Source of the DNA: a virus
Taxonomy: Duplodnaviria > Caudoviricetes
DNA length: 64,000 nucleotides
Virus record (IMG/VR): IMGVR_UViG_3300028886_000028
Coordinates: 224,001-288,000 of that record
Strand: one strand, 5' to 3'
How positions within the stretch are numbered: the stretch's first letter is position 1; every line of letters begins with the position of its first letter. The notes under the pieces were generated by a model. It was given only the letters and a program-made list of their open reading frames with translations. It was not told the DNA's origin and made no database searches. Both the position numbers and the translations under genes were made by a program. Positions 34,832 to 51,650 of this stretch are shown here, one piece after another.

Positions 34832-34843
34832 TATATAATACAC

Positions 34844-36328: not shown

Positions 36329-36397
36329 CATAATAAATGTCAGTTCTATTTACATTTTTCGCTCTTTTACTAATATTTATATACAAATAGATGTATT

Positions 36398-37168: not shown

Positions 37169-37209
37169 ATATCGGGTAGACTCCCTGTTAGTCACAGGAC
37201 CGGCTCTAT

Positions 37210-37282
37210 GCGGATATAGCTCAATTGGTAGAGCGTCTGCTTGCCATGCAGAAGGTTGGGGAATCGTGCTCCCTTATCCGCT
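37210..37282 (+). tRNA. tRNA-Gly(GCC)
   Basis: tctgc-ttgccat-gcaga; atypical T-loop atcgtgc. Confidence 0.85.
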
Positions 37283-37316
37283 CAATGAATTTAATAACTA
37301 ACTAAAAAAATCAAGA

Positions 37317-37640
37317 ATGGTAACAACAGCATTATTTACAGAAGCATTTTGGTACTATGCACCGATTTTGGCTTCTTTAACAGTAACAATTGCAGGAGCA
37401 ATTAATGGAAAATTTAACATCACAAATGGTATGTGGCCTCAGATTGTAGCATGGATTGTAGGCGTGGTGCTAACAGTAGGTGGATGGTTTATCGGTCTTG
37501 TACCACTAGGCGAACCTACTTGGCTTGCTATCGTTTGTTTGTGTGGTGTTGTAGGCCTTAGCAGTAATGGTATTTATGATATTCCATTTATCAAGAATTT
37601 GATAGATAAGATGCTGCCAGACGAAAAGTCTAAGGCTTAA
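37317..37640 (+). CDS. holin-like membrane protein
   Basis: Three TM segments, GLSSNGIYD motif, charged C-terminus. Confidence 0.55.
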   Translation: MVTTALFTEAFWYYAPILASLTVTIAGAINGKFNITNGMWPQIVAWIVGVVLTVGGWFIGLVPLGEPTWLAIVCLCGVVGLSSNGIYDIPFIKNLIDKMLPDEKSKA

Positions 37641-37855
37641 ATTTATACGCCGAACAAAGGGCTACAGTAGGCAAACGTCAAACCAAAGCCCTTGAACCTC
37701 GTAAACGTCTCAACCGCATTATGCAAAGAGAGAGGTAACAGACCATTGGGCAATTCCATAGGAGTGTTGTTAGGACGTTTATTGCACCATCAATATGGTG
37801 CAATTTTTTTGTTTGTATATTTCTTTTTTTTAACTTTTTTTTGTATATTTGTATT

Positions 37856-38074
37856 ATGAAAAAATATGCAGAAAAATGTTGGCGATGTGGAAAGCCATTA
37901 ATATGTCACGGAAGCTTTATGATTAGTGACTGGGAAGGTATAGAAATGGATGAAAATGATGACGCTGTTATAACAGATTATTATTGTCCATATTGTGGTA
38001 TGGAATATTCTATTACAGATACGCCTAAAAATCAAATGAACAATTATCAATATTTTAAAAAAGAGCAAACATGA
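37856..38074 (+). CDS. small Zn-ribbon protein
   Basis: CWRC...CPYC. Confidence 0.6.
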   Translation: MKKYAEKCWRCGKPLICHGSFMISDWEGIEMDENDDAVITDYYCPYCGMEYSITDTPKNQMNNYQYFKKEQT

Positions 38075-38457
38075 AATTTGGAGAAAGTTATGAGATTTTA
38101 ACAAAGGGAGGTTTTGTTGCCAGAAAGATTTGGGAAGGAGTTTTTATTTGGCTTAAACCTTCAGCAATAGTTAAATCAGAATGGTGCAGAGACCCAATTT
38201 TGAAAATGATTGCTGATGCAAATGGTGGAGAAGTGAAAGCTGAAGCTGTTTTGTGCAAGCATAACATTTATAAAAATGAAGTTATGACTGGTTGGATTCC
38301 GCAACAAGATGATTTGGCAGCAGATGATTGGCATGAATGTAAACCAGAAATAGTAAATGGCATATCTGGTAAACTTATTGTTATTGATAGCGCTAATAAA
38401 AATGATGGCTATGTTGGTGATTTGTTTGATGGGGCAGATGTAATTAAAAAACCATAA
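38071..38457 (+). CDS. DUF2829 / Tad2-like anti-defence protein
   Basis: MKFGE..L..G..VARKIW ... GWIPQQDDLAADDW. Confidence 0.7.
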   Translation: MKFGESYEILTKGGFVARKIWEGVFIWLKPSAIVKSEWCRDPILKMIADANGGEVKAEAVLCKHNIYKNEVMTGWIPQQDDLAADDWHECKPEIVNGISGKLIVIDSANKNDGYVGDLFDGADVIKKP

Positions 38458-38614
38458 ATTGTATTTTCATGTATAAAGTGCTATTCATTTATGACATTTA
38501 TGATGTAGATGAAGAACCAGATATTGAACCATATTTTGGAATAATGCCTCAAAAAAGGTCAATATAATTGCGTTTTTATTTACTCCACAAATTAATTTAT
38601 TATATTATATAAAA

Positions 38615-38700
38615 GCACCCGTACCCGAACTGGTATAGGGGCTACACTAAGGATGTAGTGTTCCGAAAGGGCATTGTGGGTTCGAGTCCCACCGGGTGTA
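38615..38700 (+). tRNA. tRNA-Leu(AAG)
   Basis: ctaca-ctaagga-tgtag; long variable arm; A73. Confidence 0.85.
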
Positions 38701-38728
38701 CTAAAAATAATATAGTAATTTTTTTTAT

Positions 38729-39280
38729 ATGTCTGAATTTAAAACAATTGATGAAGATGGGGTTTTATTGAGAAGGTGTTGGGCAATGCCTAATAAAAAC
38801 ACTTTCTCAATAAAGCCGTTTAAAGAACTTATTGAAAAATACAAAGCTGAATTACCTGAAGGGGCTATCATATTAGACCCATTTGCTAATTCAAATAAGC
38901 ATGGCACGATAACAAATGATATAGACCCACAATATGATACAGATTATCATTTAGACGCAAAAGATTTTCTTAAGTTGTTTAGCGACAGCTCAATAGATAT
39001 GATATTGTATGACCCACCATTTTCGCCTACACAAGTTGTTACTTGTTATAAAAAACTAGAAAAAACCGTTGATTGGGAAAGTACATCTGCTTCTTTTTGG
39101 TCTAAACAAAAAGAGGAAATAGGAAGAATTTTAAAACCTGGAGGTATTTGCATAACGTTTGGATGGAATTCTGGTGGAGTAGGTAAAAAATATGGATGCG
39201 AAATAAAGGAAATATTACTTGTAGCACACGGAGGTCAGCATAACGATACTATTGCAGTTGTTGATGAAAAAATAAAATAG
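38729..39280 (+). CDS. small adenine DNA methyltransferase-like protein
   Basis: ILDPFA, YDPPF, RILKPGG. Confidence 0.75.
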   Translation: MSEFKTIDEDGVLLRRCWAMPNKNTFSIKPFKELIEKYKAELPEGAIILDPFANSNKHGTITNDIDPQYDTDYHLDAKDFLKLFSDSSIDMILYDPPFSPTQVVTCYKKLEKTVDWESTSASFWSKQKEEIGRILKPGGICITFGWNSGGVGKKYGCEIKEILLVAHGGQHNDTIAVVDEKIK

Positions 39281-39283
39281 AAT

Positions 39284-40060
39284 ATGGCAATAGAAGTAAA
39301 CAAAATATATAATGAAGATTGTTTTGATACTATGAAACGTATGGAGGACAGGTCTATCAATGTAATATTGACAAGTCCTCCATATAACATGACGAAACGA
39401 AAAGGAGGCTATGCTGACAGTGGAAGGTATGATGTCTATAAAGATTGGAAAACTGAAAAAGAATATTTAGATTTTACTAAAAACTTGTTTAATGAATTTA
39501 ATAGAATCATATCTGATAATGGAGTAGTATTATATAATTTCGGCTACAGTATTGAAAATCCTGCATTACCTTATAAATTAGTAACTGAAATAGTTGAAAA
39601 TACTAACTGGCGTTTAGTTGACACTATATGTTGGAAAAAAAGTAGTGGTTTGCCTTTTCCTGCTAATAAATGTAGATTAAGCAGAACTTGGGAATATGTA
39701 TTTGTTTTTGCGAAAAATGGTATGATAAATGATTTTTTCATTGATAAAGGAATAGCATCAATTAGTGAAAAAACAAATCAAATATATTATAATGTATTTT
39801 ATAACTATATTGAAGCTAGAAACAATGATGAAAAAACAAATAAATTGAATCAAGCAACGTTTAGTAGTGAATTAGTTGTTAAACTTCTTGACTTATATTC
39901 AAGTGATGGCTTTATAATATACGACCCATTTATGGGGACAGGGACAACAGCAATAGGTTGTTTGAAGTCAAAAAAACAATTATATTATATTGGTAGTGAA
40001 ATATCAGAAGAACAGGTAAAATATTCTATAGAAAGGATAAACAAAACTCATTTTGTCTAA
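39284..40060 (+). CDS. N4-C/N6-A DNA methyltransferase (beta class)
   Basis: TSPPY before DPFMGTGTT. Confidence 0.9.
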   Translation: MAIEVNKIYNEDCFDTMKRMEDRSINVILTSPPYNMTKRKGGYADSGRYDVYKDWKTEKEYLDFTKNLFNEFNRIISDNGVVLYNFGYSIENPALPYKLVTEIVENTNWRLVDTICWKKSSGLPFPANKCRLSRTWEYVFVFAKNGMINDFFIDKGIASISEKTNQIYYNVFYNYIEARNNDEKTNKLNQATFSSELVVKLLDLYSSDGFIIYDPFMGTGTTAIGCLKSKKQLYYIGSEISEEQVKYSIERINKTHFV

Positions 40061-40081
40061 TATTTATTAAGAAAAAACATT

Positions 40082-40387
40082 ATGAATATAGACAAAATAA
40101 TAACAGAATCTATTAATAAAGTATTAAAAGAAGTTTGCGAAATAGACAATGCTCCTAATGGTTGGCATAGTTGGGCTGAAACAGATGCTGAAAATGGTAT
40201 GACGCCGGAAGAAGGTAAAGCAATTAGAATGCAGCCTGGTAATGCTGCTCGCGCTAAAGAACCAACACCAGTAACAACTGATTTCAGTAAAAGACCAACT
40301 GTTGAAGAATGGGAAGAAGTATATAAACCTATGGGTATGAAATATGGTGATTATTGTGAAAAAATTTATGGTGTTAAATTACGTTAA
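40082..40387 (+). CDS. hypothetical protein with IITESIN leader
   Basis: 101 aa; AATATTTATT upstream. Confidence 0.65.
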   Translation: MNIDKIITESINKVLKEVCEIDNAPNGWHSWAETDAENGMTPEEGKAIRMQPGNAARAKEPTPVTTDFSKRPTVEEWEEVYKPMGMKYGDYCEKIYGVKLR

Positions 40388-40586
40388 TTGCTTGTTTATT
40401 TGATTTTTTTTTTGTATATTTGCATTGTTAATTGAAAAAATAATAAATATGGTATACGTTTTAACATTTTTTGGCTTTATGACAGTGTTGGGCGCAATTA
40501 TAGCAGTAATTGAGGCAAGAAAAGCCCCATTGGTAAGTGATAAAGAGCCTTTTTTACATGATGATTATGTAGGAAATTAATATAAT

Positions 40587-40661
40587 GCACCTGTAGCTCA
40601 GCCGCATCAGAGCATGGCACTTCTAATGCCAGGGTCCCGGGTTGGAATCCCGGCAGGTGTA
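40587..40661 (+). tRNA. tRNA-Arg(TCT)
   Basis: tggca-cttctaa-tgcca. Confidence 0.88.
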
Positions 40662-40675
40662 CAAATTAAAATACA

Positions 40676-40848
40676 AAGGAACGTACAGCAAGTTTGTTTT
40701 AAATGTAATTTATTTATTTATTCAGACTGAAGCGAGAATAGAGAAGCACAAAATAATAATTGCGAGGCACTATTCTTATTTTTTACCGCAAATAATGAAG
40801 AATTTCATAATTTGCAAAGTCATTCCCGGACTTAAAAGGGCGTTCCTT
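40676..40848 (+). ncRNA. ACAGCAA cassette 6 (long, cargo unclear)
   Basis: aaggaacg/cgttcctt 8 bp; tacagcaa. Confidence 0.7.
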
Positions 40849-40852
40849 AAAT

Positions 40853-40926
40853 GCACCAGTAACTCAGTGGATTAGAGTGTTTGATTACGAATCAAATGGG
40901 CGGGGGTTCGAGTCCCTCCTGGTGTA
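40853..40926 (+). tRNA. tRNA-Arg(ACG)
   Basis: tttga-ttacgaa-tcaaa. Confidence 0.9.
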
Positions 40927-41242
40927 CTAAAAAAAATTAAAAAAAGTTTTGTAAAAAACTATACTTTTCAAAATTAATTAATAATTATAGAAAAATAACT
41001 TCTAAAACTATGGCAAAAAACAGTAAACATAATGTATCATTTATCAATGCTGCGTTTATTTCTAATAAATGCATTGATAATAGTATGTCTACATCAGTCG
41101 TAGATTTTAGTCGAAAAGTTCATAAACAGCATAATTGTATGAGTACTTAGATTGCACTTACACTTCACTATAAATGCCAAGCTGTTGATGAACTCCTAAA
41201 AAAAGTTTTCAACAGCTTTTTTTTGATGTTAAAACAATTGTT

Positions 41243-41539
41243 ATGAAAAATAATTGCAATAGAACTAAGTTGTTTAGGTTTTTAAAAGAACGAAATATAT
41301 TTAAGCCTTTTATTAAGGCATTTTATGACGAATATCAAATTAATACAAGAGTTGAATGGTGTGACACAAGCCATAAATTTAACGGCCATGTACCCGCATC
41401 AATTTATGATTATTGCTATGAAATAAATTGTATTGAAGAAATTATCAATTACGCTTTTGAATGGGAAAAAACAGCACAGGGGTATGATTTTTGGTCAAGG
41501 GTAAATAGAGAGTGGAGGTATTATTGCGATAGCAATTAA
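41243..41539 (+). CDS. hypothetical protein (RFLKE family)
   Basis: LFRFLKERNIF ... FEWEKTAQGYDFW. Confidence 0.6.
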   Translation: MKNNCNRTKLFRFLKERNIFKPFIKAFYDEYQINTRVEWCDTSHKFNGHVPASIYDYCYEINCIEEIINYAFEWEKTAQGYDFWSRVNREWRYYCDSN

Positions 41540-41599
41540 TAAAATTTAACATAAAATATTTTGTTATCAAAATTTTTTTATGTATATTTGCGCAAAAAT

Positions 41600-41673
41600 T
41601 GGGAGTTAGCACAGTTGGTTAGTGCAGCTGACTGTTAATCAGCAGGTCGTGGGTTCGAGTCCCACACTCCCAG
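41600..41673 (+). tRNA. tRNA-Asn(GTT)
   Basis: gctga-ctgttaa-tcagc. Confidence 0.92.
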
Positions 41674-41680
41674 CACAAAT

Positions 41681-42519
41681 GGTGAGGTGGCAGAGTGGTC
41701 GATTGCACCGGTCTTGCGCCTAATTCGAGTGCTATGGCGAAAAATCCCATAGTAGAATCTCCCTAAAACGGTGGAAGTCCTTTGAGACTCCTATGAGAAT
41801 CCTTGTTGATTCAATAATGAGGTGACAATAATAACAAACACTAACCAATAATGTGTAAGGATAATACCGTGCTAAATTGAGAATAATACTAAAATTTATC
41901 ATATATGAGATAACAAATAGAGGAAACTAAATATGGTACTTGCGCAAAATTTTAGTTAGTATTAAAAATGAGTTGTATTCTTATATGGTAGACAGCCATT
42001 AAGTTGAGACGCTTAGTATAAATATGAGCATCAGGCGAGAGTGGGTTCAAACACCACCAACTCATTTATAAATTGAAAAGCATACAGAATATCCAAAAGT
42101 ATGTAAAAAGACGATGGTGCAACATAGTCAATTTTTAATTTATTTCTCATAAATGTGTAGAGAGTATATAGGAGATACCTAAGTTGAAATTAATTTGAGG
42201 GAAAGTACTCAGCGTAGTAATACGTAATACATGAAAATTGTATTTTAAAGGAGGTTTGCCAATTGGGATAGCCCTATCAAATTACTTGCAAGAATTTCAA
42301 TATGGTAAATATGTATTCCAGACTACAACGAACATAGGAGAAATAGCGAGGAGATAGTTCAAGACTAGAGCAGCAGTTCTTGTAAACTGAAGACAGTGGG
42401 TGTAATTCCCACACTTTTCGCCACGACTTTCTTCTAAATTTGGTTATGGCAACATAAAGTAGCAAGGAAAACCGGCGGACGTGACGAGCGTTCCGGGGGT
42501 TCGAATCCCTCCCTCACCG
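41681..42519 (+). tRNA. tRNA-Ser(TGA) split by an intron (exons 41681-41715, 42467-42519)
   Basis: Joining exons gives ccggt-cttgaaa-accgg, ggtgagg/cctcacc acceptor, long variable arm, G73. Confidence 0.9.
41716..42466 (+). mobile_element. group I intron (751 nt, no endonuclease ORF)
   Basis: Exon ends in U with P1 cttg/cgag; P3 atctcc/ggagat; Q-like aataccgtgctaa; R-like gtagagagtata and S-like aatatgtattcc with compensatory P7; ends in G. Confidence 0.85.
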
Positions 42520-42522
42520 CAT

Positions 42523-42873
42523 ATGATAAAACTTGAACATTTTAAAAAAGGCAATTATTATTATATAAATGCTTATAGTGGTGATACTAGAGTTGGAAAA
42601 CTTGGTATTGAATACAGAGGAAGCCAAAATATACATATTAATTATGTTATCACTAGCGTAAGTTACACCGGAAAAGGTATTGCTACTATGATGATTAACA
42701 AGGCTATTGAATTATTTAAAGGATATGATATAAGTCTTTATGTAGTACCAATGCCTAGGAGTGAAGAAAAAATTAAATATAAAACAATAAAAGGCCTTTC
42801 TGAATTTTACAATAAGTTTGGGTTTGTTCGTACTGATGACCCTTGTTTAGTTGAAATGATATTAAAAAGATGA
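42523..42873 (+). CDS. GNAT acetyltransferase
   Basis: YTGKGIAT acetyl-CoA motif, FYNKFGF; ORF-track start lies inside the tRNA, so start moved to 42523. Confidence 0.8.
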   Translation: MIKLEHFKKGNYYYINAYSGDTRVGKLGIEYRGSQNIHINYVITSVSYTGKGIATMMINKAIELFKGYDISLYVVPMPRSEEKIKYKTIKGLSEFYNKFGFVRTDDPCLVEMILKR

Positions 42874-42945
42874 AAATAAAACAGAAAACATATAAACAGA
42901 TGTAAGTCTGCGTCAGTTAAGAGTTATGACGCAGTTATGTAAAAT

Positions 42946-43019
42946 GCGCTCGTAGCTCAGCTGGTAGATGCACAACACTTTTAATGTTGGGGTCCTGGGT
43001 CCGAGTCCCAGCGGGCGCA
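42946..43019 (+). tRNA. tRNA-Lys(TTT)
   Basis: caaca-cttttaa-tgttg. Confidence 0.88.
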
Positions 43020-43218
43020 CTAAAATGTTACTATTATACGACATTTTATAGAAACTTTTAAGGATGTTTAATTTAAAGTATTTGAAAATTATGTTGACAT
43101 TTATTTTCGGTGCAGCAGTAGGCGCAGTCGCTTATAGCTGGTGGACTAAGCGATAAGTCCAAAAACATGGAGAGTAAGGTGGCGCACTCCGCCAATTAAA
43201 ACGTCACAATTATAAAAT

Positions 43219-43293
43219 TCCGTGATGGTGTAGGTGGTTGTTGCTCGTTGGACTGAAAATCCAAAGGCCCTTGTTCAACTCAAGGTCGCGGAA
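43219..43293 (+). tRNA. tRNA-Phe(GAA)
   Basis: ttgga-ctgaaaa-tccaa. Confidence 0.85.
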
Positions 43294-43549
43294 CAAATAA
43301 AAAGTTGAAATTTATCTGTGGAATACAAACACGTTCAATCCAAGCAAGAAGGGGAACGATTTATAGGTATCAATCATAGACAGATAAAAATCTTGCAAGT
43401 ATTTCAGCTTTACTTTTAATGGTATGAGATAAACTAAGGGCTTATGTGAGGTTGTCACGAGCGTAGCATAGGAGGTGCAAGCCCACGTTTCACGAAGCTC
43501 AATGATTGACATCTATTTGTGACGTGGTTGTTTATCAATTGCCATATAT

Positions 43550-43632
43550 GGATGCGTGTAAGGACTCCTCTGGGGAGTGACCGTGTGATTGACATCAGGT
43601 AACAAACATAGGTTCGAATCCTATTGCATCCA
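43550..43632 (+). ncRNA. tRNA-like element (acceptor + T-arm, aberrant D/anticodon arms)
   Basis: ggatgcg/tgcatcc; atagg-ttcgaat-cctat. Confidence 0.55.
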
Positions 43633-43818
43633 CAAATGCTTGATAATGAGTTTGGAGCAGTTAAAAAGGTGTGTGAAGCTCTAAATTAGTAGTTAGGCGG
43701 TATTATGTATGTGCTCTCGAAAGATTGAGCTGATTTAATATCGGTTAATGAACATGAAACAATTTCTCATTTCCGCAAGCATCAATAAAAATTGGGATGA
43801 AGATTAAGTAGTAGACAT

Positions 43819-43897
43819 GCATGGGTATTCAAGCGGCTGAAGCGCCTAGTATTACAAACTAGTACACCATACGTATGTTCGAATCCTATTGCATCCA
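43819..43897 (+). pseudogene. chimeric tRNA-Val(TAC)-like sequence
   Basis: ctagt-attacaa-actag; 3' end identical to 43612-43636; acceptor unpaired. Confidence 0.5.
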
Positions 43898-44047
43898 CAA
43901 AAGGTGTTCGAAAAAACGTAGTTCGAAATGCGTTGAAGTAGATTAAATGTGGAAAGTCGTACCCTTCCGAGCAGACGTGTTTTCCACGCCTCGTTTGGGC
44001 TAAAGTGGGCAGAGATTCACGCCTCCAACACAGCATCTTTTTTATAT

Positions 44048-44127
44048 AGGGTATTAGCTCAGTTGGTTTAGAGCGTCTGACTTACATTCAGAAGGTTTCG
44101 TGGGTTCGATTCCCTCATACCCTACCA
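44048..44127 (+). tRNA. tRNA-Val(TAC)
   Basis: tctga-cttacat-tcaga; encoded CCA. Confidence 0.9.
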
Positions 44128-44249
44128 AGGAAACTAACAGCAAGGTTAAAAATGGCTTGTAACCCGTGGGTCACAGGTTCGAATCCTGTCTTAGGCTTTA
44201 AAAGTCTGGGTAGCTCAGTTGGCAGAGCAACGTTAATAAAATGTTTCCT
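44128..44249 (+). ncRNA. ACAGCAA cassette 7 with circularly permuted tRNA-Thr(TGT)
   Basis: aggaaac/gtttcct; gg-cttgtaa-cccgt, T-arm, acceptor closed by ttaaa, D-arm, acg. Confidence 0.9.
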
Positions 44250-44255
44250 AAAAAT

Positions 44256-44329
44256 GTTGGTGTAGCTTAGTTGGTTAAAGCATTTGACTGATATTCAAAA
44301 GACCGGGGGTCCGAGTCCCTCCATCAACA
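44256..44329 (+). tRNA. tRNA-Ile(GAT)
   Basis: tttga-ctgatat-tcaaa. Confidence 0.88.
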
Positions 44330-44344
44330 CACAATACAATTTTT

Positions 44345-44416
44345 GGGCTGTATAGTGTAAAGGCTAACACGAGACTTTTGCAAAGTCTAATTGCGGTTCG
44401 AGTCCGATACGGTCCA
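44345..44416 (+). tRNA. tRNA-Ala(TGC), 8-bp acceptor variant
   Basis: agact-tttgcaa-agtct; G3:U; gggctgta/tacggtcc. Confidence 0.75.
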
Positions 44417-44423
44417 CTAGACA

Positions 44424-44500
44424 AGGGAACTAACAGCAAGTTATTATTTATGTTAAAACATCAGACTGCAAATTTGAAAACGTTGAACAAATAGTTCCCT
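44424..44500 (+). ncRNA. ACAGCAA cassette 8 with isolated Cys(GCA) anticodon arm
   Basis: agggaacta/tagttccct; tcaga-ctgcaaa-tttga. Confidence 0.82.
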
Positions 44501-44516
44501 AATATTCATATTAAAC

Positions 44517-44924
44517 GGGCCTAAATTGGTATAGATTGGCAGTAGTTTGGTAGAAATCAAGCAGTGGGCATACACTAGAAATAGCAAAAAAAATATAAAC
44601 GGCGAGAATGTAGATTCTCCTGCTTATGCTTACGCAATGGCTGCGTAAGGCATGAGTCGAGAGACTAGGCTCTTAGGAACAGAACATCCTAGTAATTTTT
44701 CTTAGCGTTGTACGTTAAGATGGTGGAACTGATGACTTCTAGTCATCCCCTAGTTTTCCTCGTTTTCACAAAATGAGGTGGCGGTGAGTTAACTTTCCAA
44801 TGTTTTCCTCGTTTTCTCAAAATGAGGTGGTCTCAAAGGCGGTGTCTTCGGACACTTTGGGTAAGCTTGTATAAATTTCTATGGAACACTGAACAAGACG
44901 AGGGTTCAACTCCCTCTAGGTCCA
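44517..44924 (+). ncRNA. ssrA: tmRNA
   Basis: gggccta/taggtcc with G3:U, T-arm; tag ORF 44601-44648 GENVDSPAYAYAMAA*. Confidence 0.92.
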
Positions 44925-45100
44925 CTAAATACTAAAAAAAAACTTATGAAACATTTTAGCGAAGGAAATCAAGAAGAAGAGTATGATTCTATGAAAGAAT
45001 ATGAAACTAACATACCTTCTCATTTTAAAGACGATTAAAAAAGTAACTTAAAATTTCTTTTTTACAATTTTTTTATGTATATTTGCAAAAAATATTGGTT

Positions 45101-45352
45101 ATGGGAAAAATTTTAGATGCAGAATTTAGAAAAGAACTTTATAAAAATCTTGTAGAGGCCGGGTATGAAAAGACAGAGGCTCAAAAGATTGTTGGTAAAA
45201 AGTATTATGGAGAGTTGCATGAAGAAGTAAAGAAGGAAGTTGATGTGTTTTTAAATGCATTAGTAAAAGAGGATTTTAGTGTTGTTTTTGATTGCGATTC
45301 AGTGACAAAGAAAGTAGAAGAACTTAAAAAGTTAAAAGAATTACTTAGTTAA
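45101..45352 (+). CDS. hypothetical protein
   Basis: ORF after early promoter. Confidence 0.6.
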   Translation: MGKILDAEFRKELYKNLVEAGYEKTEAQKIVGKKYYGELHEEVKKEVDVFLNALVKEDFSVVFDCDSVTKKVEELKKLKELLS

Positions 45353-45358
45353 TAATAT

Positions 45359-45431
45359 TGTGGGGTAGAGCAGTTGGTAGCTTGTCAGACTCATAATCTG
45401 GAGGTCGTGGGTTCGAGTCCCACCCCCGCTA
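45359..45431 (+). tRNA. tRNA-Met(CAT), initiator-like
   Basis: 1:72 mismatch, gagcagttggtagct D-arm; lacks the three G:C anticodon-stem pairs. Confidence 0.8.
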
Positions 45432-45444
45432 CTTTATAAATACA

Positions 45445-45573
45445 AGGAAGTTGACAGCAAACGATAAGAAATTTTCCCAAGCCGGAGGTCGTTGGTTCGA
45501 ATCCAACTAGGAATTGTGTTTATCCTATAGCTCAGATGGTTTAGAGCGCCAGCTATTTCATTTAATGCTTCCT
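45445..45573 (+). ncRNA. ACAGCAA cassette 9 with circularly permuted tRNA-like domain (CCC loop)
   Basis: aggaagt/gcttcct; ttcccaa-gccgg, T-arm, tagga/tccta, D-arm, ccagc. Confidence 0.85.
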
Positions 45574-45578
45574 AAAAT

Positions 45579-45655
45579 AGCCTCAGGGGATGCTAGGCGT
45601 GTCCGTCACTCTGTCACAGTGTTCAATCAGGTGGGTTCGAATCCCATTGGGGCTG
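45579..45655 (+). tRNA. tRNA-Asp(GTC), atypical D-arm
   Basis: cact-ctgtcac-agtg; G73. Confidence 0.75.
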
Positions 45656-45682
45656 CGTAGTATAAAACGTTTCCTAAAATAT

Positions 45683-45756
45683 GGTGTACGTGGTTGAGTG
45701 GTTTAGGCGCAAGATTGTGGTTCTTGTCTACGCAGGTTCGAATCCTGTCGTACACC
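45683..45756 (+). tRNA. tRNA-His(GTG)
   Basis: G-1:C73; caaga-ttgtggt-tcttg. Confidence 0.9.
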
Positions 45757-45944
45757 CTAGAATAATTTAATATTTTTAAATAAAATTAGTTATGAAAAGT
45801 TTTTGGTAGATTATCAATCAGTTTTGGTAGCTGAATCGTGTTCGTGGTACTCCTAGAGTTAATTTATTATCATCGAGTGAAAATAAGGGCGATAATAGTC
45901 CTTTTACAACATTAGAAAAATATAATAAATTAATATTAGGAATT

Positions 45945-46259
45945 ATGGAAAAATTACAATTTACAGACAAAGCAACCACAAAAGAACAGTATTTAAAGTT
46001 CAAGGAGTATATTAAGCAAAATTGTCACGGTCACGCTGCTTATGTAGCATACTACATTTTCAAGCATCGTATTGAAGGTGAAAAACGTGATGAATATCTT
46101 GAAGACGAGGTTAGACATCGTTGTTGGAAAGGCCTTTATCATGGTAGAATTCTACTCAGTGGTGGAGACATGACAGAAAACTATGCAATACCACTCTTTA
46201 AGAATAGGGTAATTAGAAAGTATAACGAATTTGCTGACCCAGATGGAAAAGAAAAATAA
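45945..46259 (+). CDS. hypothetical protein
   Basis: 104 aa ORF. Confidence 0.6.
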   Translation: MEKLQFTDKATTKEQYLKFKEYIKQNCHGHAAYVAYYIFKHRIEGEKRDEYLEDEVRHRCWKGLYHGRILLSGGDMTENYAIPLFKNRVIRKYNEFADPDGKEK

Positions 46260-46539
46260 GTTATACGTATTAATTGACAAATCCCTTGATGCTGTATACG
46301 GTTGTGTTCAAGGTGGTCACGCAGTGGCGCAATGGTTACTTGAACATGATTATGGTTGGGAAAACGAGTACTTGATTTATTTGAGTGCTGATGTCTATAA
46401 GTGGAAAAACAAGTTATCTGTTCTTGGTGTCGGTTATACTGAATTTAAAGAACCAGACCTTGACAATAAAACCACATCTTTAGCTGTATTAGGGCACGAT
46501 AAGTTATTTAAGAAATTAAAATTAATCAGTGCTAATTAA
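46243..46539 (+). CDS. peptidyl-tRNA hydrolase type 2-like protein
   Basis: KLYVLID..L...VQGGHA ... EPDLDNKTTSLAV. Confidence 0.65.
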   Translation: MEKKNKLYVLIDKSLDAVYGCVQGGHAVAQWLLEHDYGWENEYLIYLSADVYKWKNKLSVLGVGYTEFKEPDLDNKTTSLAVLGHDKLFKKLKLISAN

Positions 46540-46568
46540 GCGTTACGGCTGTAGAAATACAGCCTATT

Positions 46569-46645
46569 GGCCCTATGGCAGAGTGGTCGATTGCGGTCGC
46601 TTCTAAACCGATTTATCATCGTGGGTTCGAATCCTACTAGGGTCA
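46569..46645 (+). tRNA. amber suppressor tRNA (CTA)
   Basis: gtcgc-ttctaaa-ccgat; ggcccta/tagggtc; canonical T-arm. Confidence 0.75.
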
Positions 46646-46829
46646 CTACGGCTTGGTGTATCCATTGAGATACTGAAATAGGTTAGACAAGCACAAGTCA
46701 CGTAAGAAATGACAGGCAGGCAGTAATGCTGTGCGAGGATTAGTCCCTTGCTCTAATCTCTTGATGGTAATAGAGACCTTTTTAAGTTAGAGGTTAAACT
46801 TATATTTTTTTAAAAAAGTATTAATAATT

Positions 46830-47078
46830 ATGGTAGTACAAGATATTAAGCCTTTAGTGAAAGGCATCGCTCAATTACAATATGTATTAGCCGGAGGTAT
46901 AGCAGTATATAAAATAATTGCTGTAGATGGCACGGAATATCAACTGGAAATAGATGTGAGCAATAAAAATGATGTTGGAGCAAGTGCTTCTTTTAATACA
47001 ACTGAAAAGGCTTTACTTCTAATGAGGTGGATAAGGAAAGCTAATGAAAATGATACTCTTATCAAAATAAAGGGCTAG
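46830..47078 (+). CDS. hypothetical protein
   Basis: 82 aa ORF. Confidence 0.6.
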   Translation: MVVQDIKPLVKGIAQLQYVLAGGIAVYKIIAVDGTEYQLEIDVSNKNDVGASASFNTTEKALLLMRWIRKANENDTLIKIKG

Positions 47079-47152
47079 CAGTAAAAGGTTCATCCTAAAG
47101 CTCTATTCGTAGGAATGCTGAAGGACTGAGTGTTCGAATCACTCCTAGTCCA
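47072..47152 (+). ncRNA. tRNA-like mini-RNA with Ala-type acceptor (G3:U) and no D-arm
   Basis: gggctag/ctagtcc-a; gagtg-ttcgaat-cactc. Confidence 0.65.
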
Positions 47153-47170
47153 CAAATTTAAATAAAAGTT

Positions 47171-47359
47171 ATGGCTATAATAGTTACAAAACATGGAGAT
47201 AGAATGCTTCATGGAAAATGCACAAAATGTGGCTGCGAATTTTTGTATCAATTTACTGATATAGTATATGATTATGATAGAATTAATGCATATGATTCAG
47301 AATTAAGGTGCAAATATGTACGTTGCCCAGAATGTAATGCTGTTATAGGATTAGATTAA
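47171..47359 (+). CDS. small Zn-ribbon protein
   Basis: CTKCGCEF...CPEC. Confidence 0.6.
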   Translation: MAIIVTKHGDRMLHGKCTKCGCEFLYQFTDIVYDYDRINAYDSELRCKYVRCPECNAVIGLD

Positions 47360-47365
47360 ACAAAT

Positions 47366-47698
47366 ATGGGAGAAAAGTACACTTATAGTGGATTTGAAAA
47401 CAGAGAAACTTGCGAACATTTAAGAGCAGGAGAAACATGCAAAGTAACTGGTATAGGAAATAGTATGACACCAGTTCTTCAATCTCACCAACCTGTTATT
47501 TGCGAACCGGTTACTGTTGAAACTGAATTGAAGAAAAAAGACATTGTTCTTTGTAAAGTGAAAAGATATTATTATTTACATTTTATTCATGCAATAAAGA
47601 ATAATGGAGAACAGTTTCTAATAGGCAACAATCATGGTCGCATGAATGGTTGGATAAGCAGAAATCAGGTATATGGTAAAGTTATAGAGATACTTTAA
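47366..47698 (+). CDS. S24/S26 peptidase-like protein
   Basis: GNSMTP, DIVLCKV, LH, IGNNHG. Confidence 0.55.
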   Translation: MGEKYTYSGFENRETCEHLRAGETCKVTGIGNSMTPVLQSHQPVICEPVTVETELKKKDIVLCKVKRYYYLHFIHAIKNNGEQFLIGNNHGRMNGWISRNQVYGKVIEIL

Positions 47699-48430
47699 AA
47701 ATCTCTTTTATACACCCTAGTAGTTTAAATCGTGAAAACTAGATGTATTCTAATGGTGAGTCGAATCATCCTGGGGCACTTTAGTCCTATTATTCCCTGA
47801 GAGTTGCCTAGCGTCACTCAAAGTAGTAGGTTTTGTGAATGGGTAACTGTATGAAATGGCTGTTTGTATCTTATCGTGTAGATGCATGGCACGTCATACA
47901 AACACAATGGAGATAAATCATGCAACTTATCATCCTTGTTCACACAAAGTACCCATTCAATTTTTTTAAAAGTTTGTGATAATTATGGATGGGTTTGATT
48001 ACAAAAATGGAGAACTAGTCTGTAAAAGATGCGGAAGCAGAAATGTATCAGTAAGAGCTGGTATGATGACAGACAGAGCGATATGTAATAGTTGTGGTAA
48101 TGAAGATTACATTTAACAAAAATTAATATTTTTAATTTCTTTTTTATAATTATTTTTTGTATATTTGCGTTGTAATAAGAAAAACATATGGCTTCGCTAT
48201 CAAGAAGTCAAAGGCATAACAGCCTATCGCATTTGTCCATAGCGCTTGTAACTTTGCGAACGGCGGGCTTTTCTCTAGTACAGCCTAAAAACTTGAGGGT
48301 TAGTTGTTTATCCACAAAGCAAGCACGGGTTCGAGGAAATTGGTGGTGCGTCTATAAATCCTCCGAATAACCCACGATAAGGGTGTCGTTTTGTCTGTTG
48401 TACGGCACTAGTAAAACAATAGATAATTAT

Positions 48431-48503
48431 GCTCCGTTAGCTCAGTTGGAAGAGCACTAGATTTGTAATCCTGAGGTCGTGGGTTCAAGTCCCGCACGGA
48501 GCT
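48431..48503 (+). tRNA. tRNA-Thr(TGT), weak anticodon stem
   Basis: ctaga-tttgtaa-tcctg (two mismatches). Confidence 0.75.
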
Positions 48504-48575
48504 CAGAATAAGGGGGAGAGCCTGTAGTTACGGCAGAACAGCATTCGGCTTCTACGCCAACCTCCCCAAATTTTT

Positions 48576-48649
48576 GCTCCATTAGCTCAGCTGTATAGAG
48601 CGTCATCCTCCTAAGATGAATGTCACAGGTTAGAGTCCTGTATGGAGCA
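48576..48649 (+). tRNA. tRNA-Arg(CCT)
   Basis: tcatc-ctcctaa-gatga. Confidence 0.88.
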
Positions 48650-48703
48650 CGGAAATCCCTTCTCAGTTGGGGGATAATAATATCACTGAGTGGCGGCTAA
48701 TTT

Positions 48704-49000
48704 ATGACAAAGAAATATTGGAAAGATTGGCAAAATAGAATTGGAGAAACCAAAAACATATACAAGTTTTGGAATTATTCAGATGGCAAAAAAATGAAAA
48801 GGTTTGGAGGTATATTAAACAACCTTGCAGGCGATAAATTATCTAAAGCAACATTTAATCATACAACAGATACTGTTGATTTGGTTATTGAAAGGTGGCA
48901 TCAAACGTTTTCAAAATCAATTCACATTCAGAATGAATATATAACATTGAATCGTGAAGATATTGCTTGTATAGAATTTAATAAAGAATATAATACATAG
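48704..49000 (+). CDS. hypothetical protein
   Basis: 98 aa ORF. Confidence 0.6.
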   Translation: MTKKYWKDWQNRIGETKNIYKFWNYSDGKKMKRFGGILNNLAGDKLSKATFNHTTDTVDLVIERWHQTFSKSIHIQNEYITLNREDIACIEFNKEYNT

Positions 49001-49117
49001 AAGGACATACTGGGGTAAAATCTCAGAGAAGTTACCGTAGGCAACGAATAATTGCATCCTACATCAAGGCGTTGTTACAGTTGTACGGGATAGTGGAATG
49101 TAAGTATTATATATAAA

Positions 49118-49204
49118 GGAGGGATGGGTGAGTGGCTTAAACCAGCACATTGCTAACGTGCCGGCCCTTAATTGGGCCCGGGGGTTCGAATCCCTCTCCC
49201 TCCG
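49118..49204 (+). tRNA. tRNA-Ser(GCT)
   Basis: gcaca-ttgctaa-cgtgc; long variable arm. Confidence 0.9.
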
Positions 49205-49225
49205 CTTAACTAAATTTAGTTAAAT

Positions 49226-49430
49226 GCTGTGCATCAGTGGTCCAGAGTGGTGCGCGGCTGCTACGCAAGGAAATATTCGAATAATGGTAATGCGTAGAAA
49301 ATCCCGGGCCGATGGATAGGAACGGAGAGCACCTGGTAGAGTGCGAAAGTGCGCGAAGGCGTTTACGGGTAGCTTAATGGTGTCGGTTAAGGCTTACGAT
49401 AGCCTTGTTTCATATTAGGTGATGTACAGC
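49226..49430 (+). ncRNA. unknown GC-rich structured RNA
   Basis: 11-bp closing helix gctgtgcatca/tgatgtacagc; internal hairpins. Confidence 0.55.
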
Positions 49431-49523
49431 CCTTTTATGGAAAAGTTATGAGGGTATATTAACTTAATGTTACGTTATGCCCTCATTTTTTTTATTTTAG
49501 TCTAACTAAAAATTTTATATCAT

Positions 49524-49769
49524 ATGGCGCAAAAGAAATTTTCTGAAATGGATATGATTATGATGGAACTACAGAAAATCGGAAACGATGAATTTATGTT
49601 GGGGTTCCAATATCCAGGGAACACTTTGGAAGAAGTTTTAACTGAAGCAATAAAAAAATTGCAGGATTATCTGGAAAACAATAAAGAAAATAAAGACAAA
49701 GTTTCTCCTTATGGCTACAGAATAAATCTTGAGCTTTTTAAAAAGGGAGAGCCAAAAAATATTTTCTAG
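49524..49769 (+). CDS. hypothetical protein
   Basis: 81 aa ORF. Confidence 0.55.
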   Translation: MAQKKFSEMDMIMMELQKIGNDEFMLGFQYPGNTLEEVLTEAIKKLQDYLENNKENKDKVSPYGYRINLELFKKGEPKNIF

Positions 49770-49818
49770 GTGTATTTTCCTATCATAATTTGATATTTAT
49801 TAAAAATATTCAAATAAC

Positions 49819-50319
49819 ATGATAGGTTCATTACATACAATGAGTTATCTTAAACCTTGCAATGTTTTTTTAAAATTTTTTGCAAGGTTTAAAAGGACTC
49901 AAACAGTTAATATAAAAGAGCAGTATGAAAAATACAATATAAGGGTGTTTGACTTTCATATATACTTTGTTGGAATAAATGGCAAAGCCATTTTTAAATA
50001 CAGTGGTATAAAATACGAAATATCTTCTATGTACAAAATATTCAATTATTTAGAATACGTTGGCAATTCTTATGTTAGAATTGTATTAGAAGATAATGGT
50101 GAGAAAATCACAGAAAACGATAGGCTTTTACTTGAAAAACGTTTTATTGATTATTGTAAGATAATAGAGACTATATATCCCAGAATAAAATTTTTCGGAG
50201 GGTATAGAGAATATGATTCAAACATGTTATATAGATTTAAAAATGACGCTCCTAATGATTTAATCTTTTATAAAAGAGTTGATAAATTAAATAAATTCGC
50301 CGGTGGGGGAGTGGTTTAA
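49819..50319 (+). CDS. PI-PLC X-domain-like protein (degenerate)
   Basis: IGSLHTMSY..TQTVNIKEQYE..IRVFDF resembles the PLC-X N-terminus. Confidence 0.45.
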   Translation: MIGSLHTMSYLKPCNVFLKFFARFKRTQTVNIKEQYEKYNIRVFDFHIYFVGINGKAIFKYSGIKYEISSMYKIFNYLEYVGNSYVRIVLEDNGEKITENDRLLLEKRFIDYCKIIETIYPRIKFFGGYREYDSNMLYRFKNDAPNDLIFYKRVDKLNKFAGGGVV

Positions 50320-50384
50320 CCCAGCAGTCTCCAAAACTGCCGTAGCTTAGGCTACCGCATGTTCGAATCGTGCCCGGCGAGCCA
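50297..50384 (+). tRNA. tRNA with CCA (Trp) anticodon and long variable arm
   Basis: gcagt-ctccaaa-actgc; gtagc/gctac arm; GCCA end. Confidence 0.85.
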
Positions 50385-50389
50385 TTTAC

Positions 50390-50466
50390 GGCGTGATAGC
50401 TCAGTTGGTCAGAGCAACAGACTCATATTCTGTGGGCCGTAAGTTCGAATCTTACTCACGCTACCA
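50390..50466 (+). tRNA. tRNA-Met/Ile2(CAT)
   Basis: acaga-ctcatat-tctgt; ACCA end. Confidence 0.88.
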
Positions 50467-50578
50467 AGGGAACTTACAGCAAGTATTCATCGTGAAGGAA
50501 TGGTCTACTTGAAAGTCTTAAGAGCTTTTGTGCGTAAGCACTTGTGGGTTCGAATCCCACCGAAAATAAAAGTTCCCT
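50467..50578 (+). ncRNA. ACAGCAA cassette 10 with acceptor-less tRNA-Leu(TAA) body
   Basis: agggaactt/aagttccct; aaagt-cttaaga-gcttt, variable arm gtgc/gcac, T-arm. Confidence 0.85.
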
Positions 50579-50728
50579 AATTTCTCCATTTTAATAATTT
50601 TAATATTGCAGTGCGTTTTTTTTTAAAAATGCACCGCAATTTTAGTTTAACTATTATTAACTATTATAATTTTGTTTTTCAATGTTTTTTTTGTATATTA
50701 CATATAATAAAACGAATTTAGTTTAAGT

Positions 50729-51118
50729 ATGACAATAGAAAAATTATTAAAAAGGTTTATGAAAGAAAATGGCATTTATGGAACAGAGTTATCAAAGGAT
50801 GCACTTATTTTTTTATTAAACCACGGCGAAGCAATGATGCCTTTTAATTCTTTTATATGGAGAAATACATTACAAGGCCATAATTACTGGTATGAAAAAG
50901 CCCTAAAGTGGGTTATTTGTTTATACGAAAATTATGAAAATATAAATTTAGCAGAAAAAGAAAAAAAATCTTTGTCTCTTGATGCGTTAATGATAAGTTG
51001 TTATAATTTACTTAAATATTATTGCTTAGAAGAAGAAAAAAAGGAAAATTTAATGAAAATTGATGCATATAATAAAGTTACTGAACTATATCATAAACTT
51101 CACAGCGAATCCCATTAA
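50729..51118 (+). CDS. hypothetical protein (RFxKE family)
   Basis: LLKRFMKENGIY ... FIWRNTLQGHNYW. Confidence 0.6.
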   Translation: MTIEKLLKRFMKENGIYGTELSKDALIFLLNHGEAMMPFNSFIWRNTLQGHNYWYEKALKWVICLYENYENINLAEKEKKSLSLDALMISCYNLLKYYCLEEEKKENLMKIDAYNKVTELYHKLHSESH

Positions 51119-51215
51119 CAATTGATTTTTGTCAAGTATTGGCATAAAAAAACGCATAACACATCGTTTTTTTTCTTTATTATATTATTTTTATGTATAT
51201 TTGCAGCGTGAAAAG

Positions 51216-51650
51216 ATGGAGAAACATATAAAAATTATTACAAGGTTATTTAAAGAAGCAGGTGTATTTCCTAGTAAACAATATCGTCATATCATCAATT
51301 ATATAGAAGAAAAAAAATGTTGCGTTTTTTACGGAAGAGACGACATTAGTTATGGAAAATTAGGTGTTGAATATGAAATTAAATTTTTAAAATTACAATT
51401 TGACATTGTAAAAAAATTAATTGAATATGATTTATTAACAATACCTGAATATAATATTATACTATTTGACACAATAGGTAGATATGACATTAGATTTGCA
51501 AGCGAAGATTATAATAAATGGTACAGAGTTGCAAAAGAAACAAATAAAAAAGAGTTCGTTGATTATTTTTTTAACGTATATGAGGATAAAATTGGTAGCA
51601 TTAAAGAAAGCAAAAAAGTATCTGTAAGGATGGGCTTGCCAAGGGATTAA
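51216..51650 (+). CDS. hypothetical protein
   Basis: ATG after early promoter; ITRLFKEAGVF. Confidence 0.55.
   Translation: MEKHIKIITRLFKEAGVFPSKQYRHIINYIEEKKCCVFYGRDDISYGKLGVEYEIKFLKLQFDIVKKLIEYDLLTIPEYNIILFDTIGRYDIRFASEDYNKWYRVAKETNKKEFVDYFFNVYEDKIGSIKESKKVSVRMGLPRD

Follow-up and report, generated by a model that had tools for sequence, protein, structure and literature searches.

Ro60 and its Y RNAs form a conserved RNA-surveillance system, several described forms of which resemble the locus analyzed here. YrlA, a tRNA-like Y RNA of bacteria and mycobacteriophages, is bound by Rsr/Ro60 and carries the motif GNCGAAN0-1G on the 5' strand of its Ro60-binding stem; the YrlA of M. smegmatis, whose stem has 7 bp, is cleaved by RNase P and acquires CCA (PMC4201824). 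The Ro60 of Thermus phage phiLo binds phage Y-like RNAs (Yrl1/Yrl2) and assembles with host polynucleotide phosphorylase (PNPase) (PMC12135203), Salmonella groups its genes as rsr-yrlBA-rtcBA (PMC7790460), and the TROVE proteins of jumbo phages have been discussed as RNA-repair platforms alongside the RNA ligase RtcB (PMC7824862). Here we describe a 129-base element at positions 45445-45573 of a 64,000-nucleotide stretch of phage DNA (the window), which comprises bases 224001-288000 of the 401,138-bp IMG/VR virus record IMGVR_UViG_3300028886_000028, a gut phage, and has 31% G+C. An earlier note on this DNA had described the element as a permuted tRNA mimic with a shortened, closed acceptor. 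We propose, with a probability of roughly two in three, that it encodes a stable, non-decoding small RNA of ~130 nt that is the partner of a Ro60-like ring protein of the phage. Judged from sequence, the element would belong to a second, apparently undescribed branch of the Ro60/Y RNA type, characterized by a divergent Ro60-fold protein, a different handle and, in this megaphage, a panel of tRNA look-alikes as modular cargo.

Comparison with described systems

In both the element and YrlA (RF02553), the RNA ends pair into a long stem, beyond which come a T arm, a loop-closed acceptor-like stem and a D arm. The element also keeps the tRNA tertiary nucleotides, and the Rfam model aligns to it over all 114 positions. 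This end-to-end alignment, together with covariation of the T stem and acceptor and the presence of a gene for a Ro60-fold protein (both described below), bears out as architecture the YrlA-like elbow mimicry that the earlier note had favored. However, at 27.6 bits the element stays well below the YrlA gathering score of 69, and it lacks the GNCGAAN0-1G motif; it falls outside the YrlA family. The shortness of the closed stem speaks against cleavage by RNase P, as it does in Salmonella YrlA. The genomic setting differs as well: whereas YrlA lies beside a gene for TROVE-domain Ro60, the candidate protein of this genome is a non-TROVE DUF7788/DUF2828 protein encoded 21.6 kb away, and where rsr has one or two RNAs beside it, this window has ten cassettes whose cargo is interchangeable.

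A second likeness is to the Class I RNAs of Dictyostelium (RF01414), which have been reported to be unique to Dictyostelia and carry an 11-nt motif in which T3, C6, C9, A10 and A11 are nearly invariant (PMC7919456). Both have a short stem that joins the ends, is free in sequence and covaries, a variable interior, an unpaired (C)UUACAGCAA beside the 5' strand, and an AAG start. The 11 nucleotides GTTGACAGCAA at 45450-45460 have all five of the nearly invariant bases (Rfam consensus CUUACAGCAA), and on the full RF01414 model short phage cassettes located next to DUF7788 genes reach as much as 39.3 bits, the gathering score being 41.5. RF01414 gave no match to the element itself, either at E up to 10 over 32000-51500 or at E up to 1 over 44100-45700, because at 129 nt it is too long for the model; nor did RF01414 report the short cassettes of the window at E up to 10. 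Class I RNAs differ in being 42-65 nt long and eukaryotic, in lacking a tRNA module, and in having a Dictyostelium upstream sequence element (DUSE) promoter (PMC7919456).

With phage phiLo, the locus has in common a phage-encoded Ro60-fold protein and phage-encoded small RNAs as its partners, which here are candidate partners. The phiLo protein, however, is a canonical TROVE Ro60 whose two RNAs are encoded just upstream of its gene and are recognized through a CGAA motif, and no tRNA-like domain is mentioned for them (PMC12135203). As in the Salmonella operon and in jumbo phages with ROT/TROVE proteins and RtcB, a Ro60-type protein, tRNA-like RNAs and RtcB occur in one genome, but here the three components are spread over about 95 kb. 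Finally, the order of the tRNA parts recalls a eukaryotic alga. Soma and colleagues reportedly described, in 2007, circularly permuted tRNA genes of Cyanidioschyzon merolae in which the 3' half lies upstream of the 5' half on one strand; these are said to keep a full 7-bp acceptor and processable flanks and to pass through a circular intermediate into chargeable tRNAs. The element differs in its sealed 5-bp stem and in having a protein-type handle at the junction.

A permuted tRNA-Gly-like body between handle strands

Every part listed in the earlier note was found in the rotated order and at the coordinates given there (Table 1), so that a tRNA's 3' half precedes its 5' half. Bases 45445-45451 and 45567-45573 pair as a 7-bp stem, and the coordinates therefore mark the exact ends of the element. 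When the sequence is rotated by joining 45523-45553 to 45474-45512, ARAGORN at default settings reads a tRNA-Gly(ccc) with a 5-bp acceptor and a single A-C mismatch in the anticodon stem; in its native order, 45445-45573 yields no tRNA with either ARAGORN or the Rfam tRNA model. The nucleotides of the tertiary contacts can be read directly from the sequence: U8, A14, G15/C48, G18 and G19, T54-A58, C56, G26/A44, and the 13-22-46 set.

Several properties of a canonical tRNA are missing from the Gly-type element. It does not have the contiguous order of acceptor, D arm, anticodon arm, T arm and acceptor, and in place of a 7-bp acceptor with free ends and a discriminator for CCA addition it has 5 bp sealed by a 10-nt loop. 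No bulge-helix-bulge splice motif was found at the junction, where the constrained fold places an 8-nt bulge opposite 1 nt rather than a 3-4-3 arrangement. An opening between positions 31 and 32 interrupts the anticodon loop. Because the acceptor is sealed and the anticodon loop open, charging or decoding by the Gly-type element is very unlikely. The expectation that the RNA would not mature into a chargeable tRNA thus holds, and the A-C mismatch in the anticodon stem agrees with it.

The handle is not peculiar to this element. The motif A[AC]GGRAnnnnACAGCAA occurs 10 times in the window, always on the + strand and inside a tRNA island, and an 11th copy lies elsewhere in the genome, 35 kb upstream of the window. 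In each cassette, the complement of the first 7-9 bases follows 59-173 nt downstream, and the stems differ compensatorily between copies. ACAGCA(A) follows the stem, unpaired, in 10/10 window cassettes, and every cassette, those of distant phages included, has an A-rich strand ahead of its 3' handle. The cargo between the handle strands varies, and includes permuted tRNA bodies, tRNA bodies in normal order, and non-tRNA inserts.

Covariation among related cassettes

Relatives were sought with a handle pattern scan of viral contigs, most of whose listed matches were due to chance; the figures that follow hold among the matches listed. The matches include related phages that carry arrays of such cassettes, and at least four of these phages have orthologues of the Gly-type element (L020, L081, L100 and L112). 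A second pattern scan of viral contigs gave no further Gly-type orthologue among the matches listed, and blastn of 43900-46000 against GenBank phages matched the flanking tRNAs and not the cassette. A leave-one-out covariance model of 130 positions, built from 11 related cassettes with the 45445 element excluded, matches 45445-45573 over its full length (96.8 bits, E 4.6e-20).

Across 15 permuted cassettes, the T stem is canonical in 75/75 cells, with compensatory change in 4/5 pairs (3/5 in the 11-sequence alignment). The five junction-proximal pairs of the closed acceptor are canonical in 74/75 cells (99%), and all five covary. The handle stem is likewise maintained (100/105 canonical, compensatory change in 4/7 pairs), and the D stem is almost invariant (58/60 canonical, 1/4 pairs compensatory). 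The anticodon stem is canonical in 48/70 cells, with compensatory change in 4/5 pairs, and keeps only its 2-3 core-proximal pairs. In the 11-sequence alignment (A4), 98.3% of cells are paired, compared with 35-45% when the partners are slid by 1-3 columns, and none of 500 shuffles attained the observed covariation score. The panel of cassettes can be read as a natural experiment that sets an essential handle and elbow against a free acceptor length and anticodon stem.

The acceptor, described in the earlier note as a loop-closed stem of about 5 bp, indeed has five contiguous pairs; this is the shortest among the 15 family members, most of which have 8 bp. Among the orthologues, it varies from 5 to 8 bp, with 7-8 bp in L081 and L112, and has loops of 2-17 nt. 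The sequence and length of the acceptor stem drift freely, so that it appears to serve as a stacking helix and not as a site of aminoacylation. In the distant locus L125, a permuted tRNA-mimic cassette at 2647-2826, located 4 nt downstream of a DUF7788 gene, has a 70-nt insert in its closed acceptor, and this position therefore tolerates large additions. The anticodon-like segment reads TTCCAA (UCC) in four orthologues, and the 45445 copy reads CCC through a one-base insertion. At the linker position, AAAUU and AAUUU are available for pairing in L020, L081 and L100, which is weak evidence in such AT-rich sequence. We also considered whether the element arose by recent duplication of the resident tRNA-Gly, and rejected this: the rotated body is no nearer to the tRNA-Gly genes of its own genome than to other tRNAs, and its best match is a tRNA-Val at 77%.

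Handle RNAs accompany DUF7788 genes

Distant loci encoding DUF7788 homologues (25-36% identity), together with four cultured phages, were scanned for ACAGCA preceded by a stem strand and followed by its complement. Handle cassettes were found at or near the DUF7788 homologue in 9/10 distinct distant loci, and the phages with this pairing include Felix O1-type, Listeria, Campylobacter and cyanobacterial ones. Downstream of the gene lie a single cassette at 14 nt in L117 and at 52 nt in L126, three in tandem at 4 nt in L125 (the first being the permuted tRNA mimic), five in tandem directly after the gene in Leptolyngbya phage Lbo-JY46, and two in a tRNA array 3 kb away in L123; in Escherichia phage SUSP2, the tRNA array after the gene holds three, one of them a permuted tRNA mimic. 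Upstream of the gene are three cassettes just before it in L121/L122, three directly before it in Listeria phage WIL-1, and two directly before it in Campylobacter phage CPX. The distant-locus cassettes are all on the gene strand, and their stem sequences differ everywhere while ACAGCA(A) stays constant. A strict handle test is passed by 11/42 ACAGCA sites in the metagenomic loci, compared with 37/717 in 1.8 Mb of DNA from other phages (p 2e-5, Fisher test). In the reverse direction, 4/4 records found through handle arrays alone encode DUF7788. L118/L119 has only a doubtful cassette, overlapping the gene start, and no cassette was found in L120 (2.6 kb) or in L116, a Lak-like fragment without the array.

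Two further observations concern these loci and their background. Phage WIL-1 (L242) encodes an RtcB-type "tRNA splicing ligase" 1.3 kb downstream of its Ro60-like gene, and a match to the ROOL RNA (2423-2974; 87 bits, gathering score 99.1) lies ~1 kb upstream of its three cassettes and Ro60-like gene. In the background set, unrelated high-GC viral contigs share identical elements made of ACAGCA plus a stem, GGGCCGCG/CGCGGCTC in L166, L176 and L201 and GAATCCCC/GGGGATTT in L132 and L202, which may be further family members.

A DUF7788 protein with a predicted Ro60-like fold

The candidate partner in this genome is P0001, a 540-residue protein with Pfam matches to DUF7788 (1.4e-20) and, weakly, to DUF2828 and VWA_2. 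An AlphaFold (AF2) model built from 29 homologues (mean predicted local distance difference test score, pLDDT, 81.9) has a helical ring plus a vWA domain with a metal-ion-dependent adhesion site (MIDAS). The best 11 Foldseek matches of the model in the PDB are all Ro60, and the likeness to Ro60 runs the full length of the protein. VIA-align likewise places nine Ro60 chains at the top, followed by vWA-only matches at Z 9.6; the alignment to Xenopus Ro60 (1yvp_A) has Z 20.9 and a root-mean-square deviation of 4.2 A over 424 residues, and two structures of phiLo Ro60, 9kop and 9l5y, are among the best matches (Z 17.6 and 16.3). The MIDAS residues D330, S332, S334, T401 and D434 are invariant in the homologue alignment. 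By tblastn, homologues of P0001 occur in at least 680 GenBank phage records and shade into mycobacteriophage genes annotated as "Ro-like RNA binding protein". Literature searches gave no paper linking DUF2828/DUF7788 to Ro60 or to ACAGCAA-handle RNAs, and none on permuted tRNAs in phages.

A 16-nt promoter-like motif, TTTTTTGTATATTTGC, connects the gene with the RNA units. It has 19 + strand copies across window positions 22223-63760, versus 0.21 expected, holds a TAnnTTTG box of Bacteroidota type, and precedes several tRNA/cassette units as well as other genes. The copies at 22223 and 32373 lie ahead of the Ro60-like gene and of the first cassette, respectively, and this shared motif counts in favor of P0001 as the partner. 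Outside the window, the genome also encodes an RtcB RNA ligase (316545-317735, 197 bits) and a PolyA_pol/CCA-adding-type nucleotidyltransferase (291447-291860, 91 bits).

Proposed function and alternatives

Based upon these comparisons, we suggest that the 7-bp terminal stem and the unpaired ACAGCAA would act as a handle carrying a circularly permuted, tRNA-Gly-derived body, in which the open anticodon loop may serve as a linker and the T arm, D arm and elbow nucleotides would remain intact. The element would be co-transcribed with its neighbors, as a unit of an open reading frame (ORF), tRNA-Met, the cassette, tRNA-Asp and tRNA-His. Most cassettes abut tRNA genes, and the 45445 cassette lies 12 nt after tRNA-Met and 5 nt before tRNA-Asp; we therefore infer that the tRNA-processing enzymes that trim these neighbors release the 45445-45573 RNA, with RNase P cleavage at tRNA-Asp leaving a short A-rich 3' tail. 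By analogy with the stems of Y RNAs on Ro60, the handle could dock on the DUF7788/DUF2828 ring protein, exposing the tRNA elbow to a factor that recognizes tRNA shape. Such a particle might act in the surveillance, repair or turnover of tRNA or other RNA during infection, possibly with host PNPase or the phage RtcB.

Several observations weigh against a Ro60-type partnership or the fold on which it depends. The GNCGAAN0-1G/CGAA motif by which bacterial and phage Y RNAs have so far been recognized is absent from 45445-45480, where ACAGCAA directly follows the short terminal stem instead, and the known direct binder of Class I RNAs is the RRM protein Rnp1A, which is not Ro60-like (PMC7919456). 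The genome gave no match to Pfam TROVE (PF05731), PDB sequence searches with P0001 and its profile did not find Ro60, and the putative homology of P0001 to Ro60 draws on its modeled fold and on weak tblastn links. The P0001 gene lies upstream of the element at a distance of 21.6 kb and is not adjacent to it. As to structure, the minimum free energy (MFE) is -26.5 kcal/mol compared with -20.4 for the proposed fold, with a z-score of -0.18 against shuffles, and energy-only folding recovers just the handle stem with confidence, leaving the cloverleaf 6 kcal/mol above the MFE; since the cloverleaf is not favored by energy, the structure rests on covariation, and there the relatives share ancestry, so that cell counts overstate the number of independent events. 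Finally, 5% of ACAGCA sites in unrelated phage DNA pass the strict handle test, some of which may be real family members.

The RNA could instead work independently of Ro60, as a free-standing decoy or sponge for a host factor that recognizes tRNAs (a defense nuclease, a modification enzyme or RNase P), with the handle merely stabilizing it. The cassettes do show differing tRNA identities (Gly, Thr, Lys-like and Leu-like), they strictly retain the elbow nucleotides, orthologues share a conserved TTCC(C)AA segment, and phages are known to counter tRNA-cleaving defenses with tRNAs and ligases of their own (PMC7824862). Yet the open anticodon loop of the permuted cassettes makes them poor mimics for anticodon nucleases, tRNA parts are wholly absent from many family members, and neither the adjacency of handle RNAs to DUF7788 genes nor the conservation of ACAGCAA across phyla beside a stem of free sequence is explained by stabilization. 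We consider this explanation unlikely.

Alternatively, the element may be a by-product of the architecture of tRNA operons, its handles being processing or insulating hairpins (RNase III sites, for example) and its interior a decaying pseudogene. In keeping with this, the distance from the cassette end to a following tRNA or the transfer-messenger RNA (tmRNA) is 4-16 nt in 6/10 cassettes (ends at 32463, 33973, 40848, 44249, 44500 and 45573), three start within 7 nt after a tRNA (44127, 44423 and 50466), cassette positions change between relatives, and the MFE shows no special stability. In a pseudogene, however, one would not expect compensatory changes that maintain pairing of the T stem and closed acceptor in all copies. 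Handle RNAs also lie beside DUF7788 genes with no adjacent tRNA (in L117, L125, L126 and Lbo-JY46), and conservation of the unpaired ACAGCAA is confined to one strand, which makes such an origin distinctly improbable.

Could the element be a true circularly permuted tRNA-Gly(CCC) gene, whose transcript has its ends cut and joined (by RtcB, for example) so as to close the anticodon loop, its acceptor opened by RNase P and a 3' nuclease, and CCA added before charging? The permutation is exact and ARAGORN accepts the rotated sequence, the genome encodes both RtcB and a CCA-adding-type enzyme, the array contains no standard tRNA-Gly(CCC), and M. smegmatis YrlA sets a precedent both for cleavage by RNase P and for the addition of CCA (PMC4201824). 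Against this, the acceptor has 5 bp and no discriminator, its free variation (5-8 bp) is incompatible with the identity set of glycyl-tRNA synthetase, the central anticodon-stem mismatch is conserved, and the orthologues read UCC rather than CCC. Standard tRNA-Gly(UCC) and tRNA-Gly(GCC) are already present, and the ends of the element are the same ACAGCAA handle found on tRNA-free cassettes, with no bulge-helix-bulge. Thus, a permuted tRNA gene is very improbable. Equally hard to credit is a mobile cassette acting at the DNA level, with tRNA-related cargo shuffled through inverted handles that serve as recombination sites and with the RNA incidental: relatives do hold different cargo in the same slot, an orphan 3' handle exists, and the Gly-type cassette occupies three positions among four phages, but all copies lie on the transcription strand, covariation of the handle strands is that of an RNA helix in which G-U pairs also occur, the nearby ORFs (TelA, OmpA-like, HNH and methylases) include no associated recombinase, and homologous recombination at conserved handles suffices for shuffling.

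Returning to a handle RNA that partners a Ro60-like protein, a broader and more tentative idea is that phage ACAGCAA-handle RNAs and Dictyostelium Class I RNAs form one ancient class whose partner is the DUF2828/DUF7788 branch of Ro60. The megaphage handle might then be a universal adaptor for swappable tRNA mimics (Gly, Thr, Leu and Lys-like) that aim one ring protein at tRNA-specific enzymes or defense nucleases and are exchanged by handle recombination. While this is possible rather than probable, the signature in common with Class I RNAs makes DUF2828/DUF7788 proteins concrete candidate partners for the Class I RNAs of Dictyostelium.

The cassette array and its turnover

The + strand between 32.4 and 50.6 kb of the window carries 25 tRNA genes and a tmRNA, including a suppressor tRNA with anticodon CTA, and a Lak-like megaphage fragment shares the gene order around the TelA gene of the window. 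The features of the element and its surroundings are collected in Table 1. As the array illustrates, handle-RNA loci in phage genomes have been left unannotated or miscalled as odd tRNAs; ARAGORN reads the cassettes at 34346 and 50467 as tRNA-??? and tRNA-Leu, respectively.

Table 1. Positions in the window of the parts of the 45445-45573 element, of other cassettes, and of neighboring features.
Feature	Position	Strand	Remarks
Handle stem, 5' strand AGGAAGT	45445-45451	+	Pairs with 45567-45573
Unpaired TG-ACAGCAA (ACAGCAA at 45454-45460)	45452-45460	+	Next to the 5' stem strand
A-rich 5' linker	45461-45473	+	GAAAU may pair with AUUUC at 45555-45559 (constrained fold)
Anticodon-loop-like TTCCCAA (CCC = Gly), 5' side open	45474-45480	+	ARAGORN anticodon ccc after rotation
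Anticodon stem, 3' strand GCCGG (positions 39-43)	45481-45485	+	Pairs with 45549-45553, 4/5, central A-C mismatch
Variable loop AGGTC	45486-45490	+	C48 available for Levitt pair with G15; direct reading
T arm GTTGG / TTCGAAT / CCAAC	45491-45507	+	
Closed acceptor-like hairpin TAGGA, 10-nt loop, TCCTA	45508-45527	+	5 bp
U8-A9 (TA, 45528-45529), D arm GCTC / AGATGGTTTA / GAGC (45530-45547), G26 (45548)	45528-45548	+	
Anticodon stem, 5' strand CCAGC (positions 27-31)	45549-45553	+	GCCAGC in 4/5 Gly-type orthologues
A/U-rich 3' linker	45554-45566	+	
Handle stem, 3' strand GCTTCCT	45567-45573	+	Covariance-model match ends exactly at 45573
AAAAT spacer to tRNA-Asp	45574-45578	+	tRNA-Asp starts at 45579; would form a single-stranded 3' tail after RNase P cleavage
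Atypical tRNA-Asp(gtc)	45579-45656	+	ARAGORN; Rfam 28.1 bits, gathering score 29
Orphan 3' handle GTTTCCTAAAAT	45669-45680	+	4 nt before tRNA-His; expected 0.011 on strand by composition, seen once outside complete cassettes; no 5' partner
tRNA-Met	45359-45432	+	61.4 bits; 12 nt upstream; its 3' processing would fix where the RNA begins
Promoter-like motif TTTTATGTATATTTGC	45071-45086	+	Probably where the unit of ORF, tRNA-Met, cassette, tRNA-Asp and tRNA-His begins
Cassettes with permuted tRNA bodies	33838, 44128, 45445	+	Further copy outside the window
Sister cassette, permuted tRNA-Thr(UGU)-type mimic	44128-44249	+	YrlA model 34.3 bits; covariance model 119 bits (training-set member)
Sister cassette, further permuted tRNA mimic	33838-33973	+	Covariance model 55.6 bits, E 1.9e-10; outside training set
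Short ACAGCAA-handle cassette without tRNA parts	32405-32463	+	
Short cassettes with non-tRNA inserts	33284-33351, 34844-34907, 44424-44500	+	
Cassette with 140-nt insert	40676-40848	+	
Cassettes with tRNA bodies in normal order	34346-34458, 50467-50578	+	
P0001, 540-aa DUF7788/DUF2828 protein, candidate partner	22260-23882	+	Helical ring plus vWA/MIDAS (model)

The earlier note had also pointed to an orphan 3' handle just upstream of tRNA-His and taken it as a sign of cassette turnover. The orphan handle is real, and turnover is supported in part. In L020, the slot between tRNA-Met and tRNA-Asp holds a 54-nt non-tRNA cassette (in the order tRNA-Met, cassette, tRNA-Asp, tRNA-His), and the extra 27 nt with the orphan handle that separate Asp from His here have no counterpart there. 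The Gly-type cassette follows tRNA-Pro in L020 and L081, and precedes it in L100. From these differences in slot and cargo among relatives, it follows that cassettes move or are replaced, and recombination between conserved handles would be the simplest route by which they are shuffled.

Other members of the array have features of their own. The body at 34346-34458 is Lys(UUU)-like with a 6-nt anticodon loop, and that at 50467-50578 is Leu(UAA)-like; both are probably non-decoding. The Lys-like cassette is conserved beside the Gly-type cassette in L020, L081 and L100. The copy outside the window, at 189039-189180 of the genome (35 kb before the window), is a permuted tRNA mimic with an AGGAAAG/CTTTCCT handle and a long D arm of Leu type, and an element resembling it is present in L106. 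The array has just one tRNA-Asp, at 45579-45656; its D arm is odd and its variable region extended, and the corresponding slot of L020 holds a tRNA-Asp to which it shows no sequence relationship. The tmRNA lies at 44517-44927 (Rfam 54.8 bits; ARAGORN tag peptide GENVDSPAYAYAMAA*), preceded by the short ACAGCAA cassette at 44424-44500, a layout that is near-identical in L020.

The suppressor tRNA (anticodon CTA) is encoded at 46569-46646. Reading TAG as Gln joins two ORFs at 38729-40060 into a single 443-aa DNA methylase, whose match to Pfam N6_N4_Mtase spans residues 210-433 (profile positions 1-219 of 221) and falls mostly in the downstream part; this suggests that TAG is recoded in part of the genome. 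Two tRNA-like stretches, at 43550-43636 and about 43800-43893, share a 24-nt T-arm/acceptor ending, TTCGAATCCTATTGCATCCACAAA, and have long, differing interiors, the first scoring 25.5 bits with the Rfam tRNA model; they could be intron-bearing, split or mimic tRNAs. A marginal tRNA that ARAGORN misses lies within 42348-42520 (Rfam 30 bits), and an isolated T arm with an acceptor-like 3' strand is found at 42467-42519, overlapping the start of the ORF at 42481-42873.

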